DNA of 11,043 nucleotides from a virus: the UHGV virus genome UHGV-0098765. One strand, written 5' to 3'. Of this stretch, positions 2,753 through 9,405 are shown one piece after another. The notes beneath the pieces are model-generated. The model saw nothing but the letters and a program-made list of their open reading frames with translations. It did no database searches and was not told the origin of the DNA. Position 1 is the stretch's first letter, and each line of letters begins with the position of its first letter. The translations under genes were made by a program, and so were the position numbers.

Positions 2753-3262
2753 TCACTCTCCTTTGATGCGAATGCCAGCTGCGCTTGCTGATTCTTCATA
2801 TGCGCGTTTAGCAGCGTTAATGATTGCTGCCAGTGGCGTATAGCCGCCATCCATTCGGATTGTGTTGTGGATGCCAGCCATTGTGTTGCGCAATTTTCTG
2901 TGGCTAGCAGACAGTTCTGCTATGCGCTTCTCTGCGGCTTCCATCTCAACGCGCAGCCTTCCTACCGTTAGCGCAATATCCTCGTTCTCCTGGTCACGGC
3001 GTTTGATGTATTGCTGGTTTCTTTCCCGTTCATCCAGCAGCGCCTGCACTACTTCAGGGTTGAAAGCTGCGATATAACGAGCGTTGTTCTCTGCGTTGTT
3101 CTGTCCATCAAAGCCGGTCCATTTGATAACGTCTTCACATCGTTTATCACCAGGTGTATGCACCGCATATGTACCAGTACCAGACGAAATAAATGCGACC
3201 CATTCACCCTGTGTTGCCAGTTGCGCCGCTTTACGCAGTGCCTGATAGTCAATCTTGCTCAC
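2753..3262 (-). CDS. Ead/Ea22-like family protein (169 aa from the GTG start)
   Basis: GTG 3260-3262 is preceded by AAGGAGG with 6-nt spacing and overlaps the stop of the upstream 79-aa ORF (GTGA). N-terminus SKIDYQALRKAAQLATQGEWV plus a central coiled-coil-like region match this family. The track start at 3298 is also GTG and lacks an RBS. Confidence 0.65.
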   Translation of the reverse strand: MSKIDYQALRKAAQLATQGEWVAFISSGTGTYAVHTPGDKRCEDVIKWTGFDGQNNAENNARYIAAFNPEVVQALLDERERNQQYIKRRDQENEDIALTVGRLRVEMEAAEKRIAELSASHRKLRNTMAGIHNTIRMDGGYTPLAAIINAAKRAYEESASAAGIRIKGE

Positions 3263-3498
3263 TGGTTGCCTCCTTTGCGGATCTGCGCTGCGATGCACGA
3301 AAAAAAAGACTCCCGCGTATGACTGTTAAGAGCTGGCGCGAACGCTGCGTTAAGAACGGCAGCATCACAGCCGTCATCGATATAGAGCGCAATTTTTTTC
3401 TCCAGGCGTGCTTTGGCTTCCTGCAACTGCATACCCCGGCACGCACGTGGGATATACTCAGCAATTTGAGCGATAGATTTTTCGTTCTGTTTAAACAT
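3259..3498 (-). CDS. Hypothetical prophage early protein (79 aa)
   Basis: ATG start with GAGGTGA 5 nt upstream; overlaps the stop of the upstream 67-aa ORF by 8 nt (ATGTTTAA), a translationally coupled chain. Confidence 0.55.
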   Translation of the reverse strand: MFKQNEKSIAQIAEYIPRACRGMQLQEAKARLEKKIALYIDDGCDAAVLNAAFAPALNSHTRESFFSCIAAQIRKGGNQ

Positions 3499-3694
3499 GC
3501 TTCACCTCGATCGGCTTGATGGTATCGATCAGCAGTCGGCGGCGAGTATTTTCTGCAAAGTGGCGGCGTCCGGTTTCTTTGTGGTAAAACTCGTTTTTTC
3601 CGACGACCCACATCCGCTTTGTCTGGTGCAGTTTTTTTACCTGCGGACCGTCTCGGGTGATAACAATTCCTGTATGAGTTTTTATCACGCTCAT
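3491..3694 (-). CDS. Hypothetical small basic prophage protein (67 aa)
   Basis: ATG 3692-3694 overlaps the upstream gene stop (ATGA); GGAG 9 nt upstream. Confidence 0.55.
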   Translation of the reverse strand: MSVIKTHTGIVITRDGPQVKKLHQTKRMWVVGKNEFYHKETGRRHFAENTRRRLLIDTIKPIEVKHV

Positions 3695-4053: not shown

Positions 4054-4580
4054 TTGCGTAACTCCGATAACTCGTTAAAACGTTCCATAAACATCCCGTA
4101 GGCATGGCCCGGTGCCAGTGGAATCACGTTGAACATCTCTGTTGCCGGGATGCCTTCCAGTACAGGCCAGAAAGAGCCATCATCAAGCCCGAGATCGCGG
4201 CGTTCGGTTGCCAGCATGATGAGATCGGCATATTTCACAGGTGTGCTCATAACCGGGGGTAACCCGTATTTCTCACGGATTACGGCATCTATTTTTTCTT
4301 CCATCCGTTTATAGTCAGGAAGAAGGCGTTTCAGTGGCGCCGGGATGTCCTGGCAATACGCTTCTGTTGCATCATGCATTAACGCTTCAAAAGAAAATTC
4401 CTGCGGTACCAGCTGGCTGCAAAGCACCGCATGCTGGGCGACACTGTAGAAGTGTGAAAGATGTCCTGCAAAGCGACAGATATTTGAAAGGGAAACCGCG
4501 ATATCGTTAATAACGATGTCATCTTTATTTATCTTGTCATAATAAAAATGCTTCCCAGAAAAAGTTTTAATAAATGACAT
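4044..4580 (-). CDS. yfdR: HD-domain phosphohydrolase, YfdR-like 5'-deoxynucleotidase family (178 aa)
   Basis: H..H and HD signature (HFYSVAQHAV...LMHDATEAYCQDIPAPLK). Start taken at ATG 4580 (MSFIKTF...) with GGAG 6 nt upstream; the track ORF begins 9 codons earlier without an RBS. Confidence 0.8.
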   Translation of the reverse strand: MSFIKTFSGKHFYYDKINKDDIVINDIAVSLSNICRFAGHLSHFYSVAQHAVLCSQLVPQEFSFEALMHDATEAYCQDIPAPLKRLLPDYKRMEEKIDAVIREKYGLPPVMSTPVKYADLIMLATERRDLGLDDGSFWPVLEGIPATEMFNVIPLAPGHAYGMFMERFNELSELRKCA

Positions 4581-4707: not shown

Positions 4708-5532
4708 TCAGGCGGTGAAAGTACCAATAAAGGTTTCTACTTTGCTGTCTTTGAATTTCTCAACAAGCAGATCACGAAATTCGTTAGCCATTTCTTCCTG
4801 CACCGCTTCCAGCTGAATAATGCGCAGAACCAGTACAGGACGATCGCCAGTGATAATGCTGAGGCGTAATTTAAATGGACGTTCTTTCAGACCTTCAAAC
4901 GGAACGCATTTAAATTCAAATGCCACTGGCATAATATCTTTGGTCTTCGCTTCGACAGACTCCATCAGGGAGCGTTTGCCGCTGAAGTCATTATCTTCAA
5001 AATCAGCGGTCTGGTTTGCTTCAATCGTGATTTTACGGACAGCCGCAGCCGCTTTTGTTGCCTGAATAGCGTCACCATTAGCATCAAAGCCCACAAGGTA
5101 GTCGGCCCAGTCTTCAATCCATTCTGCCAGTGACTTCTGGGAGTTACGCTCGCCATTAACAGACAACAGAGCAGAGAACGGTGCTGTCTTTTTCAGTTTG
5201 AGAGTGGCGGTGTTATCTGCGTGACCAGGTTCATCAATAGTACCCAGATTAAGCACACTGACGGCTCGCATATTATCGGCATCGATAAAGCAGCGGGTGC
5301 CTTCATCTGCAAGATCTTTAGAATAACGGGTAAAGTCATCGATGCTGGCAGTGGAAAGCGCACCACGGAAACGGAAGCGATTTAAATTAAATTTTTCCAG
5401 ATCATGAATGCGGAAATTCTCAGGCAATGCCACAGCATCGGCACCAATCTTACTGATAATTTCATTAACACCCTGAGCAGAAATAAGGGCATGGATTTGA
5501 TTAATTGCGGTTGCGTCTAAGTTCTGAGACAT
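4708..5532 (-). CDS. yfdQ: YfdQ-like protein (DUF2303 family, 274 aa)
   Basis: Intact 274-aa ORF with GAGGA RBS. Size, position and general sequence character match my recollection of K-12 CPS-53 YfdQ. Confidence 0.8.
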
Positions 5533-5597: not shown

Positions 5598-5960
5598 TTA
5601 ACGACCTGCTGCGCGGAGTTTTCCGTCAGGTTCACCGGCAAGAGTCAGTAATTGTCCCTGGTCTTCCTGCAGAATAGTCAGGCGACCACCGCGATTGACA
5701 TACATCAGCGTTTCGGTGGTGTCTTCTTCGGAAATTTTCCCGCGGTTAGTCGGGCGAACATATGAGAGTTTATGTTTGATTTTCACACGGTTCTCATCAA
5801 ATGGTTCGATTTCCAGGTTGAGCGAGACCTTACCTTTGTTTTTCGTGTTCATCGCACCGGAAGCGACTTCACTGAGAACTGCGCCGAGTTTGGTTTCAAA
5901 TACGCCGCCGTCCAGTTCTACGATAAATTCCTGCACGTTGGTACTGCGTTCGCTAGCCAT
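5598..5960 (-). CDS. yfdP: YfdP-like hypothetical prophage protein (120 aa)
   Basis: Start ATG 5960 (MASERSTNVQEF...) with GAGGAGCAG RBS. The track ORF extends to 6191, but that extension (Cys/Arg/Pro-rich, non-protein-like) lies in the structured leader. Confidence 0.7.
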   Translation of the reverse strand: MASERSTNVQEFIVELDGGVFETKLGAVLSEVASGAMNTKNKGKVSLNLEIEPFDENRVKIKHKLSYVRPTNRGKISEEDTTETLMYVNRGGRLTILQEDQGQLLTLAGEPDGKLRAAGR

Positions 5961-6096
5961 TTTGCTGCTCCTCATCATATCGACCCTGCAAGGTCGGTTG
6001 GTTTCTCCACAAAACAGAGAAGAACACCTGCGGTGGCAGCCGCCCGGATGGATTGGGTTATGAGCCCGTCGTCCGGTGATGCTCTTCTCTGTTTTG

Positions 6097-6143
6097 TAAA
6101 AAGAGCGGTACCAGCCGGAAGCAAGTGTACAAACTGGTACCGC
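6097..6143 (-). terminator. Intrinsic terminator inside the PL leader, upstream of the first early-left gene
   Basis: Minus-strand RNA: GCGGUACCAG, 19-nt loop, CUGGUACCGC, then UCUUUUUACAAAAC. 10-bp perfect stem at plus 6105-6114 / 6134-6143. The U-tract region CGCUCUUUUUACAA also resembles boxA (CGCUCUUUA). Confidence 0.5.
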
Positions 6144-6546
6144 CAAAGCAGTGGCTGTTGTGGTGGGGTTGTCACTCAGGCGTATGGTCAACCTGACAAC
6201 CCGGTGTCCTCAACGGGGAAAGAGTAACCCCGCCATACTTACCGCCGCGCCATTTCGCGGATTACCACAACGCTGAGAGCACTTAGCTAGTTACGGCACC
6301 ACACTTTGTCGCTGCTCCATAAATGCCCTCATCGTTGCACCCTGGTCTCTTCCCAGGCGTCAAACCGAATCGCCACGCTGGTTAGACGTCTTATCAGCAT
6401 CCTCATTGACTTGCACATTCCGGCTACCTGGTTTGTTTGCCCGAGCAAGGAGTGGATTGTCCCCTTTAACGTCCCCAGACCGCTAACGACGCATGTGCCA
6501 TACGCCGTGTTACAACCAAATTTTGTTAGGACCTTGTTTGTTTGTC

Positions 6547-6606
6547 TGGAAAGAAAGATAAAATGAAATTGCGTATTGTGCAAGTGTTTTGTTGCGAGTT
6601 ATGCAA
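6547..6606 (-). promoter_or_regulatory. Putative PL early-left promoter with two OL-type operators
   Basis: Minus-strand -35 TTGCAC (plus 6578-6583), 17-bp spacer, -10 TATCTT (plus 6555-6560). Two 15-bp palindromic sites TTGC-N7-GCAA at 6569-6583 and 6592-6606 match the same motif in the OR region (7376-7390). Confidence 0.5.
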
Positions 6607-6616
6607 TAGCGTGAGT

Positions 6617-6640
6617 AATGAAAAGCCACCTTCTGGTGGC
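6617..6640 (-). terminator. Intrinsic terminator downstream of the repressor gene
   Basis: Minus-strand RNA: GCCACC-AGAA-GGUGGC then UUUUCAUUACU, about 23 nt after the cI-like stop codon. Confidence 0.6.
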
Positions 6641-6662
6641 TAATTGATGTTGAGGTAGGGGG

Positions 6663-7355
6663 TTAATTGTGTCGCTTAAGGGTTTGTGACTGACTGATTA
6701 AGACCTTTCCAAAGACCATAAACCGGTGTTCGTTTTCGCTGGTAATTCCCCATTCGCGGTAAATCTGATTATCAGAAATTACCAGCAGTTTATCAGGTAT
6801 CATTTGCAGTCGTTTGACGTAAATTTTATCATCAAAACCAAATACATATATACCATCCCCATCAAACTGATTGATACTGATATCAACGAAGATAAGATCT
6901 CCTGGCTCAATGGTTGGACACATACTGTCCCCACGAACGTTGATAACTTTAATGTGATTTGCTGGTCGTCCACCAAACATCGATACAGCATTATCAGTTC
7001 TGTATTCAATGGCATGAATCACATCAATGACATCACCGCCCTGGATAAGGCCATTTCCCGCACTGGCACTGACATCCAGCATTTCAATACGGAATACATC
7101 CTTCACCTGCGCAACATCCTCACTAATACTGTTTTTACATACAGTATTACTTTTGAGGTCTGAGGTAAAGAGATCAGCAATATCAACACCTAAGCTCCTG
7201 GCAATATTACTCAGGGCTTGTTCAGTGAATTGTTTCTGCTTACCTGTTTCGAGGCGCGAGATATTCGCCGCATCCACTCCTATTGCTTCAGCGAGATCGG
7301 CGATTTTCATGTTCTTCGCCTGGCGAAGTTGTCTGACTCGATTTCCTATGTTCAT
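6663..7355 (-). CDS. CI-like prophage repressor (N-terminal XRE-type HTH, C-terminal S24 LexA-like peptidase domain; 230 aa)
   Basis: HTH region RVRQLRQAKNMKIADLAEAIGVDAANISRLETGK; candidate Ala-Gly cleavage site (SASAGNG); catalytic Ser in GDSMCPTI and Lys in KRL. Divergent from the cro-like gene; apparently leaderless, with -10 TGTAAT 6 nt before the ATG. Confidence 0.9.
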   Translation of the reverse strand: MNIGNRVRQLRQAKNMKIADLAEAIGVDAANISRLETGKQKQFTEQALSNIARSLGVDIADLFTSDLKSNTVCKNSISEDVAQVKDVFRIEMLDVSASAGNGLIQGGDVIDVIHAIEYRTDNAVSMFGGRPANHIKVINVRGDSMCPTIEPGDLIFVDISINQFDGDGIYVFGFDDKIYVKRLQMIPDKLLVISDNQIYREWGITSENEHRFMVFGKVLISQSQTLKRHN

Positions 7356-7452
7356 GCGTTTATTACATTTCTTTATTGCGCGTTAAGCAAATCAACTTGC
7401 GCAAAATATTTGCGTGAAATAATATGCTCATCACGCAATATGTGGAGGTTAT
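7356..7452. promoter_or_regulatory. Divergent PRM/PR promoter and operator (OR) region
   Basis: PR on plus: -35 TTGCGC 7397-7402, 17-bp spacer, -10 TAATAT 7420-7425, GGAGG RBS 7444-7448. PRM on minus: -35 TTGCTT (plus 7385-7390), 17-bp spacer, -10 TGTAAT (plus 7362-7367). Operator-like palindromes: TTGCGCGTTAAGCAA 7376-7390, and inverted repeat TTGCGTGA (7410-7417) / TCACGCAA (7431-7438) flanking the PR -10. Confidence 0.6.
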
Positions 7453-7713
7453 ATGCAATCACCATTACGGAATGTGCGTAAGGCGCACGGATTTACTTTG
7501 CAGCATGTTGCTGCTGGCGTTCAGGTCAATCCAGCGACGCTGAGTCGTATTGAAAGACTGGAACAAATTCCATCTATCGATCTTGCAGAACGTCTGGCCA
7601 ATTTTTTTAAGGGTGAAATCAGCGAAATGCAGATTCTTTATCCGGCACGTTTTCAATCTAGCCAAAACCAGAATGGGTTTAAACCACAGGAACAGGAGGT
7701 AAGCCGTGGGTAA
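7453..7713 (+). CDS. Cro-like HTH transcriptional regulator (86 aa)
   Basis: GGAGG RBS; XRE-type HTH (AHGFTLQHVAAGVQVNPATLSRIER); divergent from the repressor gene across the operator region. Confidence 0.8.
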   Translation: MQSPLRNVRKAHGFTLQHVAAGVQVNPATLSRIERLEQIPSIDLAERLANFFKGEISEMQILYPARFQSSQNQNGFKPQEQEVSRG

Positions 7714-8257
7714 GCATCATTGGAAAGTGGAAAAACAACCTGAGTGGTACGTGAAAGCTGTCAGAAAAACTATCGCGGCATTGCCTGGGGGTTACGCTGA
7801 AGCTGCTGACTGGTTGGATGTAACAGAGAACGCTTTATTCAACCGCCTTCGTGCAGATGGCGATCAGATTTTCCCGTTGGGATGGGCAATGGTTTTACAG
7901 CGTGCTGCTGGCAATCACCACATTGCGGATGCTGTCGCACAGTCTGCTGGTGGGGTGTTTGTATCACTTCCTGAAATTGAGGAAGTAGAGAACGCCGATA
8001 TCAACCAGCGCCTGCTGGAGGTCATTGAACAGATCGGCAGTTATTCAAAACAGATTCGTTCAGCAATTGAAGACGGGGTGGTGGAACCACACGAGCAGGC
8101 AGCAATTAACGACGAGCTGTACATGTCAATTTCGAAGCTGCAGGAGCATGCAGCACTGGTCTACAAAATCTTTTGCGCTCCAGAAAAGAGTGACGCCCGC
8201 GAGTGTGCAGCTCCGGGCGCCGTGGCGTTTTGTGTCTGTGGAGAAACTAACGCATGA
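7706..8257 (+). CDS. Putative CII-like phage regulatory protein (183 aa), function hedged
   Basis: GTG start at 7706 with AGGAGG 6 nt upstream, overlapping the cro-like stop by 8 nt. Position immediately after cro. No specific motif verified. Confidence 0.55.
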   Translation: MGKHHWKVEKQPEWYVKAVRKTIAALPGGYAEAADWLDVTENALFNRLRADGDQIFPLGWAMVLQRAAGNHHIADAVAQSAGGVFVSLPEIEEVENADINQRLLEVIEQIGSYSKQIRSAIEDGVVEPHEQAAINDELYMSISKLQEHAALVYKIFCAPEKSDARECAAPGAVAFCVCGETNA

Positions 8258-9405
8258 ACAGTTTAACGGCAAATAACCGTTTGTCGCAACAGCTGGTGGT
8301 CAGCGTGGCTGAACACCTGTTGTTACGGCATGAATGCAGATTACCAAATCACCTGGCTGTAAGTAACCACAGAGAACTTTACCTGACTGTGGGGGGCGAG
8401 TTGTGCAGGAACTTAACCGCTGGTTTCGTGACGGAAGAGGGCTTTATGTCCATGTTATTCGTTGGGAGCCAGAAACACAGCGCGTTATCTATCTTCGCAA
8501 AGACTACCCGCATGAGTGCTTTAGTCCTTTGTGGAAATTCAGGCGTGATTTTGTTGAGTGTGAAGGACCACCAACACATTGATTCTGCCATTCCGGGACG
8601 TTACACTATTCAGGCACCTTATAAAACGGGTGCCGGGCGTGGAAACCCGGAATTCACCAAAGCGCACAACCGCGCTCTTGCGGTTTTTTTGTGTCATGAG
8701 CAGCATTACGCCCAAATTATGGTGGGGCGTGCAGGGCCAACTTCGGTTGGGCCGGGTTCTTTGGTGACCGGTATTTCCACCCCTGTACGTCTCACCACCA
8801 ATAAGGTCGTGGAAAGCCTTGGTGGTGAGTTATTAAAAATCACCAAAGAGGCTGCCATCATGGCTACGATCCCAACCCTCACTCAACCTGAAATTGCCAT
8901 CGTTGATGGTCAGGCTGTTACTTCATCCCTGGCTGTTGCCAACTTCTTCTCCAAACGTCATGACGATGTACTGAAAAAGATCCGCACGCTTGAATGCTCA
9001 GCATCATTCACTGCCCGCAATTTTTCGGTGAGTGATTACACTGATTGCACAGGTCGCAAACTTCCTTGCTACCAAATCACACGCGACGGTTTTGCGTTTC
9101 TTGCTATGGGTTTCACGGGTAAACGTGCTGCCCAGTTCAAAGAGGCATATATCAATGCCTTTAACCAGATGGAGAAACAGCTTTCAAAGCCCTATGTACC
9201 GAGCGACGTTGCACATAACGCCAGCGTTCTCTGTTCCTACATTTCATCAATTCATCAGGTCTGGCTGCAGCAGCTTTATCCTATGTTGGCAAAAGCCGAA
9301 TCTCCGCTGGCTGTTAGCTTATATGACTATATTAATGATGCTTCGGCGCTGGCCTGCCTCATAAATTTGTCGCTGAACCCTTCAGAGGTAAGGGGGCGCA
9401 AATGA
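8254..9405 (+). CDS. Rha-family phage regulatory protein (Rha domain in the C-terminal half); alternative start at ATG 8840 gives a 188-aa canonical Rha protein
   Basis: ATG 8254 overlaps the CII-like stop (ATGA) with a GGAGAAA RBS, and the frame stays open for 383 codons. The recognisable Rha domain (VDGQAVTSSLAVANFFSKRHDDVLKKIR...YQITRDGFAFLAMGFTGKRAAQFKEAYINAFNQMEKQL) begins only after ATG 8840, which has its own AAAGAGG RBS. A terminator-like hairpin with a T7 run (8648-8670) lies inside the N-terminal part. Confidence 0.45.
   Translation: MNSLTANNRLSQQLVVSVAEHLLLRHECRLPNHLAVSNHRELYLTVGGELCRNLTAGFVTEEGFMSMLFVGSQKHSALSIFAKTTRMSALVLCGNSGVILLSVKDHQHIDSAIPGRYTIQAPYKTGAGRGNPEFTKAHNRALAVFLCHEQHYAQIMVGRAGPTSVGPGSLVTGISTPVRLTTNKVVESLGGELLKITKEAAIMATIPTLTQPEIAIVDGQAVTSSLAVANFFSKRHDDVLKKIRTLECSASFTARNFSVSDYTDCTGRKLPCYQITRDGFAFLAMGFTGKRAAQFKEAYINAFNQMEKQLSKPYVPSDVAHNASVLCSYISSIHQVWLQQLYPMLAKAESPLAVSLYDYINDASALACLINLSLNPSEVRGRK

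Follow-up and report, generated by a model that had tools for sequence, protein, structure and literature searches.

By which signals is the repressor of a lambdoid prophage controlled, and by which routes could DNA damage reach it? The question was raised by a stretch of 11,043 nucleotides (nt) from UHGV virus genome UHGV-0098765; the whole stretch is called the window here, and motif counts refer to it. Its segment 6300-7800 was 98-99% identical at the nucleotide level to mEp460, PhiR47_1/PhiR40_1, and phiSTEC1575-Stx2k, about 96% identical to Stx2a_1447/WGPS2 and 1720a-02, and 90% identical to Shigella phage SfII. The records of mEp460, SfII, and the PhiR phages annotate both divergent genes of the segment as cI and cro. 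Judged by its sequence, the region is the immC-type switch of a lambdoid prophage from the mEp460/SfII/Stx2 immunity group, a very common one. At least 80% of the segment was present in 1037 of 5426 complete E. coli genomes, which places the immunity module in about one genome of five. Phages that convert their hosts to Stx2a or Stx2k production are under its control, as is SfII, which converts the Shigella serotype, and the operators, promoters, and induction route of the module therefore bear on toxin release and lysogenic conversion.

We read the locus, with a probability of about 0.7, as a lambdoid immC switch with a leaderless cI messenger RNA (mRNA) and an S24 self-cleavage module, in which a short CI, encoded by a nested reading frame and derepressed when LexA is lost, would act as an antirepressor. 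The cI/cro switch itself is largely ordinary, of the textbook lambdoid type with a specificity of its own. In the literature we found no earlier description of a conserved SOS box combined with an internal start within cI.

The repressor gene cI (6663-7355, minus strand) encodes 230 amino acids (aa) with HTH_3 and Peptidase_S24 domains (PHROG phrog_4), and its product was 100% identical to the cI proteins of phages PhiR40_1 and phiSTEC1575-Stx2k. It is transcribed divergently from the plus-strand gene cro (Shine-Dalgarno [SD] sequence GGAGG at 7444-7448; open reading frame [ORF] 7453-7713; 86 aa with a Pfam HTH_3 match), and a common operator motif lies at OR and OL. The locus was compared with cI loci from phages and from a collection holding one genome per species; the set spans cI identities from 96% down to about 47% and includes Shigella, Citrobacter, Kluyvera, Klebsiella, Pantoea, Proteus, Serratia, Erwinia, and others. 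A scan of IMG/VR with the cI alignment yielded 80 loci, all at 96-100% identity and thus of no use for covariation.

Operators, predicted promoters, and a probably leaderless cI mRNA

The exact motif TTGC-N7-GCAA was found four times in the window against 0.40 expected, a number reached in 2 of 200 shuffles, and three of the four sites fall in the two short intergenic regions flanking cI. The original prediction had placed three such 15-mers at 6569-6583, 6592-6606, and 7376-7390, exactly where we found them. It had called them the same 15-bp palindrome, but the exact 15-mers share only the outer TTGC(G)/GCAA arms and differ in the central 7 bp. OL1, TTGCGTATTGTGCAA (6569-6583), provides with its minus-strand left arm TTGCAC (6583-6578) the predicted PL -35 element, and OL2, TTGCGAGTTATGCAA (6592-6606), lies 23 bp away from centre to centre. 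Most relatives carry a palindrome at the position of OL1, downstream of the cI terminator, and most have two OL sites.

The site at the OR3 position, TTGCGCGTTAAGCAA (7376-7390), contains in its minus-strand arm TTGCTT (7390-7385) the predicted PRM -35 element. It was the one OR site of the original prediction, and it cannot repress PR alone because it lies upstream of the PR -35 element and overlaps only that of PRM. A second OR site had been missed: ATGCTCATCACGCAA (7424-7438), with one mismatch, occupies the OR1 position over the -10/+1 region of PR and mirrors 7376-7390 in an imperfect palindrome with 32-nt arms centred at 7407. Between these two clear sites, and likewise missed, lies the conserved element TTGCGCAA (7397-7404, within 7397-7411), which includes the predicted plus-strand PR -35 element TTGCGC and is a possible weak OR2 half-site. 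The sequence TGCGCAAG at the PR -35 element was invariant in six diverged relatives, and in Klebsiella phage 1 LV-2017 and Eeyore the 15-mer ending at this element is a one-mismatch operator; whether CI binds 7397-7411 of the window is uncertain. Another candidate for OR2, the central 6-3-6 palindrome CGCAAA-ATA-TTTGCG (7400-7414), was rejected because it is conserved only in the window and SfII.

Nearly all of about 35 species-level relatives carried 15-bp palindromes 35-36 nt and 83-84 nt upstream of the cI ATG, with one or two further palindromes after the cI terminator; at matching positions the arms were conserved and the cores varied freely. The arms also followed the helix-turn-helix (HTH) sequence of the repressor. 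Relatives with the recognition region D(A/S/G)ANISRLETGKQK have TTGC...GCAA arms, whereas in a sister subgroup the recognition region of the TTGC-arm group, DAANISRLETGKQK, is replaced by DVGNLSRLERGxQG(YS), and the arms are ATGCG-N5-CGCAT at both OR and OL. Because the positions are fixed, the cores free, and the arms both conserved and tied to the HTH sequence, the assignment of the TTGC-N7-GCAA sites as shared CI operators, also made in the original prediction, is well supported. We considered it very improbable that the palindromes arose by chance or merely reflect promoter-related TTG sequences. The TTG of each predicted -35 element is indeed overlapped by a TTGC, and sites with one mismatch are not enriched in the window (9 found, 8.25 expected); however, the exact sites are enriched 10-fold and clustered in about 2% of the window, arms lying outside any -35 element are conserved as well, and neither the fixed positions relative to cI nor the covariation would be expected on that explanation. 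The operator patterns, TTGC(G)-N5/7-(C)GCAA and, for the sister subgroup, ATGCG-N5-CGCAT, could be used for annotation and for predicting immunity groups.

An operator-like perfect palindrome, GTGCG-TAAGG-CGCAC (GTGCGTAAGGCGCAC, 7474-7488), lies in codons 8-12 of cro. The equivalent position holds an exact operator, TTGCGATTTTCGCAA, in Eeyore and one-mismatch operators in Salmonella 118970_sal3 and Klebsiella phage 1 LV-2017; in the window it was also marked as terminator-like by the terminator scan. Located about 50 bp past the predicted PR start, it may serve as an extra operator. Separately, the fourth exact motif (9045-9059) and two one-mismatch motifs (9092-9106 and 9209-9223) lie within 180 bp of each other inside the Rha/Ant gene described below, and this cluster could be due to chance or could represent additional CI binding sites.

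The operators overlap the predicted and conserved hexamers of PL, PR, and PRM, none of which was called by a consensus scan. The predicted PL -10 element, TATCTT (6555-6560, minus strand), lies 17 nt downstream of TTGCAC, which is part of the OL site nearest to the promoter; SfII, Klebsiella phage 1 LV-2017, and Eeyore all keep TATCTT. For PR, the predicted -10 element TAATAT (7420-7425, plus strand) follows TTGCGC (7397-7402) at N17; it reads TAA(T/C)AT in five relatives and TATTAT in ENT47670. The predicted PRM -10 element, TGTAAT (7362-7367, minus strand), follows TTGCTT at N17 and is separated by 6 nt from the A (7355) at which the cI ATG begins. The overlap of operators with the predicted -35 elements of PL and PRM, as proposed originally, agrees with the sites found, and the -10 hexamers of both promoters are conserved.

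The short distance between the PRM -10 element and the cI start, 6-7 nt, leaves the predicted cI mRNA without a leader, and no GGAG, GAGG, or AGGA was present at -16 to -4 upstream of cI in the window or in 35 of 37 relatives. The layout TTGxxx-N16-18-xxxAAT-N6/7-ATG without an SD sequence recurs in about 30 relatives. Among those that lack it, two loci (L115 and L121) have an SD core and three (L105, L106, and L111) do not. The ymfK gene of e14 has a matching arrangement, TTGTAC-N17-TTTAAT-N6-ATG with the -35 element within a palindrome, and differential RNA-seq has identified five leaderless mRNAs in E. coli, that of ymfK among them (PMC4681348). Because of the position of the -10 element, the missing SD sequence, the conserved layout, and the match to ymfK, the cI mRNA is very probably leaderless, in agreement with the original prediction.

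A conventional alternative would use the promoter TCCACA (7446-7441)-N16-TATTAT (7424-7419) on the minus strand and produce a leader of about 57 nt translated without an SD sequence. It was the sole intergenic promoter to pass a scan requiring 9 of 12 consensus positions, and its -10 element is the AT-rich segment that it has in common with the PR -10 element. Its -35 element, however, is not conserved (TCCAAA in SfII, TCCTTC in Sal3), whereas TGTAAT 6 nt from the ATG, with TTGxxx 17 nt further up, is kept in about 30 relatives; the SD cores of the two deviating loci and the leaderless ymfK also speak against it. We therefore regard a leadered cI mRNA as unlikely.

The cI start must be Met1 (7355), because the first 15 residues form HTH helix 1. 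In the mEp460 record (2865-3512 of locus L002) and in many database entries of 215-216 aa, the repressor starts instead at Met16 (window 7310-7355). A start at Met16 would remove HTH helix 1, and the 215-aa annotation of mEp460 is probably too short. At the other end, the gene is followed by an intrinsic terminator found by the terminator scan (6617-6641, minus strand), a hairpin AGCCACC-AGAA-GGTGGCT followed by TTTTCATT. The SfII record marks the counterpart of this feature as a terminator, and hairpin and T-run are conserved in relatives. An Rfam search matched no family within the switch or within 6080-6548.

A LexA box and a candidate nested start inside cI

The repressor protein has the parts needed for self-cleavage. 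Residues 3-64 matched the Pfam families HTH_3 (41.8 bits), HTH_31 (44 bits), and HTH_26 (44.8 bits), and residues 104-218 matched Peptidase_S24 with 68.3 bits (cutoff 23.3). The predicted cleavage site is Ala99-Gly100 (codons 7061-7056, minus strand) within SASAG, which was invariant in the alignment of relatives. The motifs GDSM, with Ser144 (6926-6924), and VKRL, with Lys181 (6815-6813), align to GDSM and VKKL of UmuD, which hold its catalytic Ser and Lys, and were invariant in six relatives. The S24 module is thus intact, as originally proposed, and self-cleavage is predicted from its residues. A literature search found no direct mitomycin-induction data for a phage with exactly this repressor. 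The mEp460 record names the regulator of ST64B as similar, and for prophage ST64B the transcription of lytic genes under peroxide and nitric oxide stress has been described (Owen et al., PMC7067206). The proposal that the element is SOS-inducible through S24 is consistent with the intact module, but it left the route of the SOS input incomplete, since a LexA box inside cI had been missed.

This box, TACTGTTTTTACATACAGTA (7127-7146), lies in the linker codons 70-76 (Asn-Thr-Val-Cys-Lys-Asn-Ser) and agrees with TACTGT-N8-ACAGTA at 12 of 12 consensus positions. It is the sole LexA site in the window even when up to two mismatches are allowed (0.28 expected). It differs from the E. coli umuDC box at one spacer base, and the SfII-type copy, TACTGTATATAAAAACAGTA, is identical to the umuDC box. 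Of 39 relatives with cI identities of 47-96%, 34 carried the box at matching codons with no more than two mismatches, and its flanks were not conserved; it was absent from the sister clade at or below 45% cI identity. Within the linker, Thr71, Val72, and Ser76 alone are invariant. Thr71 was encoded by ACT and Ser76 by AGT in all 34 box-bearing genes, whereas 32 other invariant residues with degenerate codons used 2-6 codons each, nearly all of them 4-6, with a mean top-codon share of 0.43. Because ACT and AGT are fixed while other synonymous sites are scrambled, the box appears to be kept at the DNA level: judged by codon use, it is under purifying selection beyond the coding need.

Shortly downstream of the box, cI contains a candidate second start. 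The candidate nested ORF (6663-7121, minus strand) has the SD sequence GAGGA at 7121-7117 and a GTG start at codon 84 (7106-7104). It has the reading frame and stop codon of cI, and would encode a short CI of 147 aa that consists of the S24 part only and still holds the cleavage site. Most box-bearing genes have, a few tens of nt past the box, an in-frame GTG or ATG that GGAG, GAGG, or AGGA precedes by 4-10 nt. In 29 of the 34, this combination lies 11-15 codons before the Ala-Gly site, mostly at codon 87 or 88 and 12 codons before it. Synonymous recoding of the same peptide segments with the codon usage of each gene family gave an expectation of 4.0 genes of 34, and no simulation of 2000 exceeded 10. 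In-frame combinations elsewhere in the box-bearing genes were rare and scattered. Conversely, 18 of 20 relatives without an intact box (six within the clade and 14 from the sister clade) had no internal start at this position, and the two exceptions carried decayed boxes with three mismatches. A product of the C-terminal domain (CTD) starting at Met92 was considered and rejected, since Met92 is not conserved.

A candidate promoter for the nested gene, TTTACC (7169-7164)-N17-TACTGT (7146-7141) on the minus strand, takes its -10 element from the left half of the box and would be repressed by LexA. Its position weight matrix score was 8.5 against a background of 4.3 +/- 2.5. Most relatives have it in the same register, which is also that of TTGATC-N17-TACTGT(box) of umuDC as read from the E. 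coli K-12 genome. Box, SD sequence, and start together probably encode a LexA-repressed, S24-only short CI, whose function we infer. The more specific proposal, that cI holds a complete in-frame second gene with a umuDC-like promoter, a ribosome-binding site, and a GTG or ATG start, whose short UmuD-like product poisons CI dimers or competes for activated RecA (RecA*), is tentative, and we would put it somewhat below an even chance.

The switch might work as follows. In the lysogen, CI dimers at 7424-7438, and perhaps also at the TTGCGCAA element, would block PR, CI at 6569-6606 would block PL, and CI at 7376-7390 would limit PRM by autoregulation; the leaderless cI mRNA would end at the terminator at 6617-6641. 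Upon DNA damage, self-cleavage of CI at Ala99-Gly100, stimulated by RecA*, would remove CI. Cleavage of LexA would in addition derepress the internal umuDC-like promoter, giving a short CI of about 147 aa that carries the S24 domain and its cleavage site. Short and full-length CI would form heterodimers with a single DNA-binding domain, which would be deficient in DNA binding and could speed derepression or commit the cell to it under sustained SOS. The main alternative role for the short CI would be that of a RecA* decoy. The SOS input probably extends beyond CI autocleavage alone. If this is true, prophage induction, including that of the Stx2 and SfII phages, would be coupled in a new way to the host SOS clock, and a nested gene would join the means by which mobile elements are known to make use of LexA.

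The box is palindromic and gives no direction by itself. It could instead govern an antisense promoter in cI. After LexA cleavage, plus-strand transcription from about 7137 would then run into the PRM transcript and pair with it, and would continue through OR to reach cro without the need for PR. The plus-strand candidate TTCACC (7102-7107)-N17-AATACT (7125-7130) scored 8.4, on a par with the sense candidate, and the box would cover its -10/+1 region. In relatives, however, antisense candidates had varied registers, mostly poor scores (mean 6.7), and no common position, and the flank that would hold the antisense -35 element is not conserved. An antisense promoter would also leave the conserved in-frame SD sequence and start on the sense strand unexplained, and we consider it improbable.

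Several observations weigh against the nested-gene reading or the switch model that contains it. At OR, the PR -35 element is poor: TTGCGC agrees with the consensus at only 3 of 6 positions, which is why the strict scan missed PR. OR2 is only a half-site in the window, and the same scan, which missed PL and PRM as well, called the minus-strand promoter at 7446-7419 instead. The nested start of the window is a GTG at codon 84 with an SD spacing of 10 nt, and codon 87 is GTA here; it may be a weaker version than that of most relatives. No standalone S24-only homologue was found among the top 120 protein matches, all of which were 206-233 aa long except one 147-aa and one 144-aa entry on contigs of at most 1.3 kb. 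The 147-aa entry has exactly the predicted form of the short CI and occurs only on contigs of at most 1.1 kb, and both entries are probably truncated gene calls. The internal -35 element overlaps the conserved Phe63 codon, and its conservation, which may reflect the protein, is weak evidence of a promoter. The relatives behind the conservation counts are not phylogenetically independent. A literature search retrieved no paper on the operators of this immunity type or on an intragenic LexA box, and a search on truncated-repressor antirepressors and internal-promoter mechanisms retrieved nothing relevant.

LexA bound at the box, 209 nt inside the PRM transcription unit, could also act on elongation. 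The box would then have no promoter and would serve as a roadblock or attenuator controlling the amount of full-length cI mRNA, or be the relic of a fusion between an HTH gene and a umuD-like gene, with the internal SD sequence and start used constitutively on the PRM transcript. The close resemblance of the box to the umuDC operator and of the CI CTD to UmuD would suit such an origin, and an internal SD sequence on a leaderless mRNA is translatable from whichever promoter makes the transcript. A relic, however, would not remain intact where synonymous sites are saturated, and a LexA roadblock would reduce CI in a stable lysogen, in which LexA is abundant, contrary to regulatory logic. The internal -35/-10 register, equal to that of umuDC, also argues for a promoter, and a box without one seems to us an unlikely explanation.

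Likeness to known regulatory systems

The locus resembles the immunity region of lambda in its divergent cI and cro, in one operator motif at OL and OR that overlaps the predicted PR, PL, and PRM, in a cI mRNA without SD sequence and probably without leader, and in a repressor with HTH and S24 parts, an Ala-Gly site, and a Ser/Lys dyad. Unlike those of lambda, the operators here are 15 bp long with TTGC(G)/(C)GCAA arms, and there are two clear OR sites 48 bp apart with a conserved half-site and two OL sites. A perfect site lies over the PRM -35 element (centre at about -28), and therefore negative autoregulation is expected rather than the lambda-style activation from OR2. There is no rexAB, the LexA box and the candidate nested gene lie inside cI, and CI is only distantly related to its lambda counterpart.

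The gene order of e14 (ymfK/cohE-ymfT/croE-ymfL) is also found here as cI-cro-ymfL, the last being a CP76/CII-like YmfL homologue (7706-8257, after cro; Pfam and PHROG matches), and both have an operator palindrome over the -35 element. However, YmfK is 23% identical to the CI of the window and e14 has GGTACA-type operators, which makes the two heteroimmune; ymfK also has neither a LexA box nor an internal SD sequence with a start. We therefore rejected e14 as the same element and regard it as an analogue only. In e14 (positions 4190-4215 and 4955-4975 of locus L003), GGTACA/TGTACC palindromes such as TTGTACCGTTAAGGTACAA were found in the ymfK-ymfT intergenic region and downstream of the ymfK terminator. 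Their placement suggests that they are the e14 operator set, at the same positions as the predicted operators here.

The umuDC operon of E. coli K-12 reads TTGATC-N17-TACTGTATATAAAAACAGTA-N19-ATG, and the cI-internal element has the same register, with an SD sequence and a start after the box; its predicted product resembles UmuD in being an S24 domain that holds a cleavage site. It differs in lying in frame within a larger repressor gene, in its weaker -35 element (TTTACC), and in having no umuC partner; its product would be the C-terminal domain of CI rather than a polymerase subunit.

LexA-controlled antirepressors such as GfoA and GfhA of the Gifsy prophages are alike in that a LexA box ties induction to LexA cleavage and not only to repressor self-cleavage. 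Tum of coliphage 186 and AntC of N15 are further LexA-controlled antirepressors. There, a small gene of its own at another place in the prophage encodes the antirepressor, and the main repressor often cannot be cleaved. The candidate in cI, by contrast, would be the C-terminal domain of the repressor itself, translated from a nested start, and this repressor has retained the cleavage module. The sieB-esc pair of lambda and P22 is a precedent for an internal in-frame start whose shorter product antagonises the full-length protein; it differs in that its function is superinfection exclusion and LexA is not involved. For the Gifsy prophages, LexA boxes upstream of separate antirepressor genes have been described (Lemire et al., PMC3121763).

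The second immunity-type module and the predicted PL leader

The original prediction had called the immunity region complete, but besides the missed site that would occlude PR, a second immunity-type module was found 1.2 kb to the right of cro. It comprises an isrK RNA (RF01394, 8614-8690; Rfam 67.9 bits, gathering threshold 50), a C4 antisense RNA (RF01695, 8715-8802; 83.6 bits, gathering threshold 45), and a Rha/Ant gene, together at about 8600-9405. Both RNA genes fall inside a 383-aa ORF (8254-9405) that is annotated as "regulatory protein Rha" in mEp460, and the Pfam Phage_ASH match to aa 117-213 of this ORF spans both. The true start of Rha/Ant is probably the ATG at 8860, which is preceded by the SD sequence AAAGAGG and would give a protein of 181 aa. 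The 383-aa ORF, and possibly also some of the Phage_ASH family, may be a translated RNA region.

In its parts the module looks like the P1 immI or Gifsy isrK-anrP type. As in immI of P1/P7 (c4 RNA-icd-ant), Gifsy-1 isrK-anrP, and immI of P22, isrK-like and C4 RNAs lie directly upstream of Rha/Ant; unlike in those systems, the module here lies in the rightward early region, and annotations fuse the RNA genes and ant into the 383-aa ORF.

Induction could depend mainly on the Rha/Ant antirepressor (8860-9405) under C4/isrK control, as in P1/P7, P22, and Gifsy, with CI self-cleavage slow or irrelevant. The two RNAs directly upstream of a gene of the Rha/anti-repressor family favour this, as does the finding that Gifsy induction is driven by LexA-controlled antirepressors (PMC3121763). 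Against it, Ala-Gly, Ser, and Lys of CI are invariant across the clade, and a search upstream of the ant gene found no LexA box. Gifsy-type repressors that rely on antirepressors reportedly lack the cleavage module, which also argues against antirepressor-driven induction here. We judge that this route is rather unlikely to be the main one, and we prefer the CI-based induction with the LexA-controlled nested start. A second exact CTGT-N8-ACAG, CTGTAAGTAACCACAG, is present at 8357-8372, about 240 nt upstream of isrK; its flanks are poor, not being TA...TA, its core is richer in GC, and it is probably not a LexA site.

On the left side of the switch, the predicted PL transcript runs for about 590 nt (5960-6548, minus strand) before the first convincing gene, which starts with the ATG at 5960 after the SD sequence GAGGAG and belongs to PHROG 204, of unknown function. 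This leader folds somewhat better than its shuffles (z = -2.15) and includes a terminator-like hairpin, GCGGTACCAG/CTGGTACCGC (6143-6105), followed by TCTTTTT and without an Rfam match. It might be an antitermination or termination-immunity element of the kind that SfV has. The mEp460 record annotates an implausible plus-strand ORF across the PL leader.

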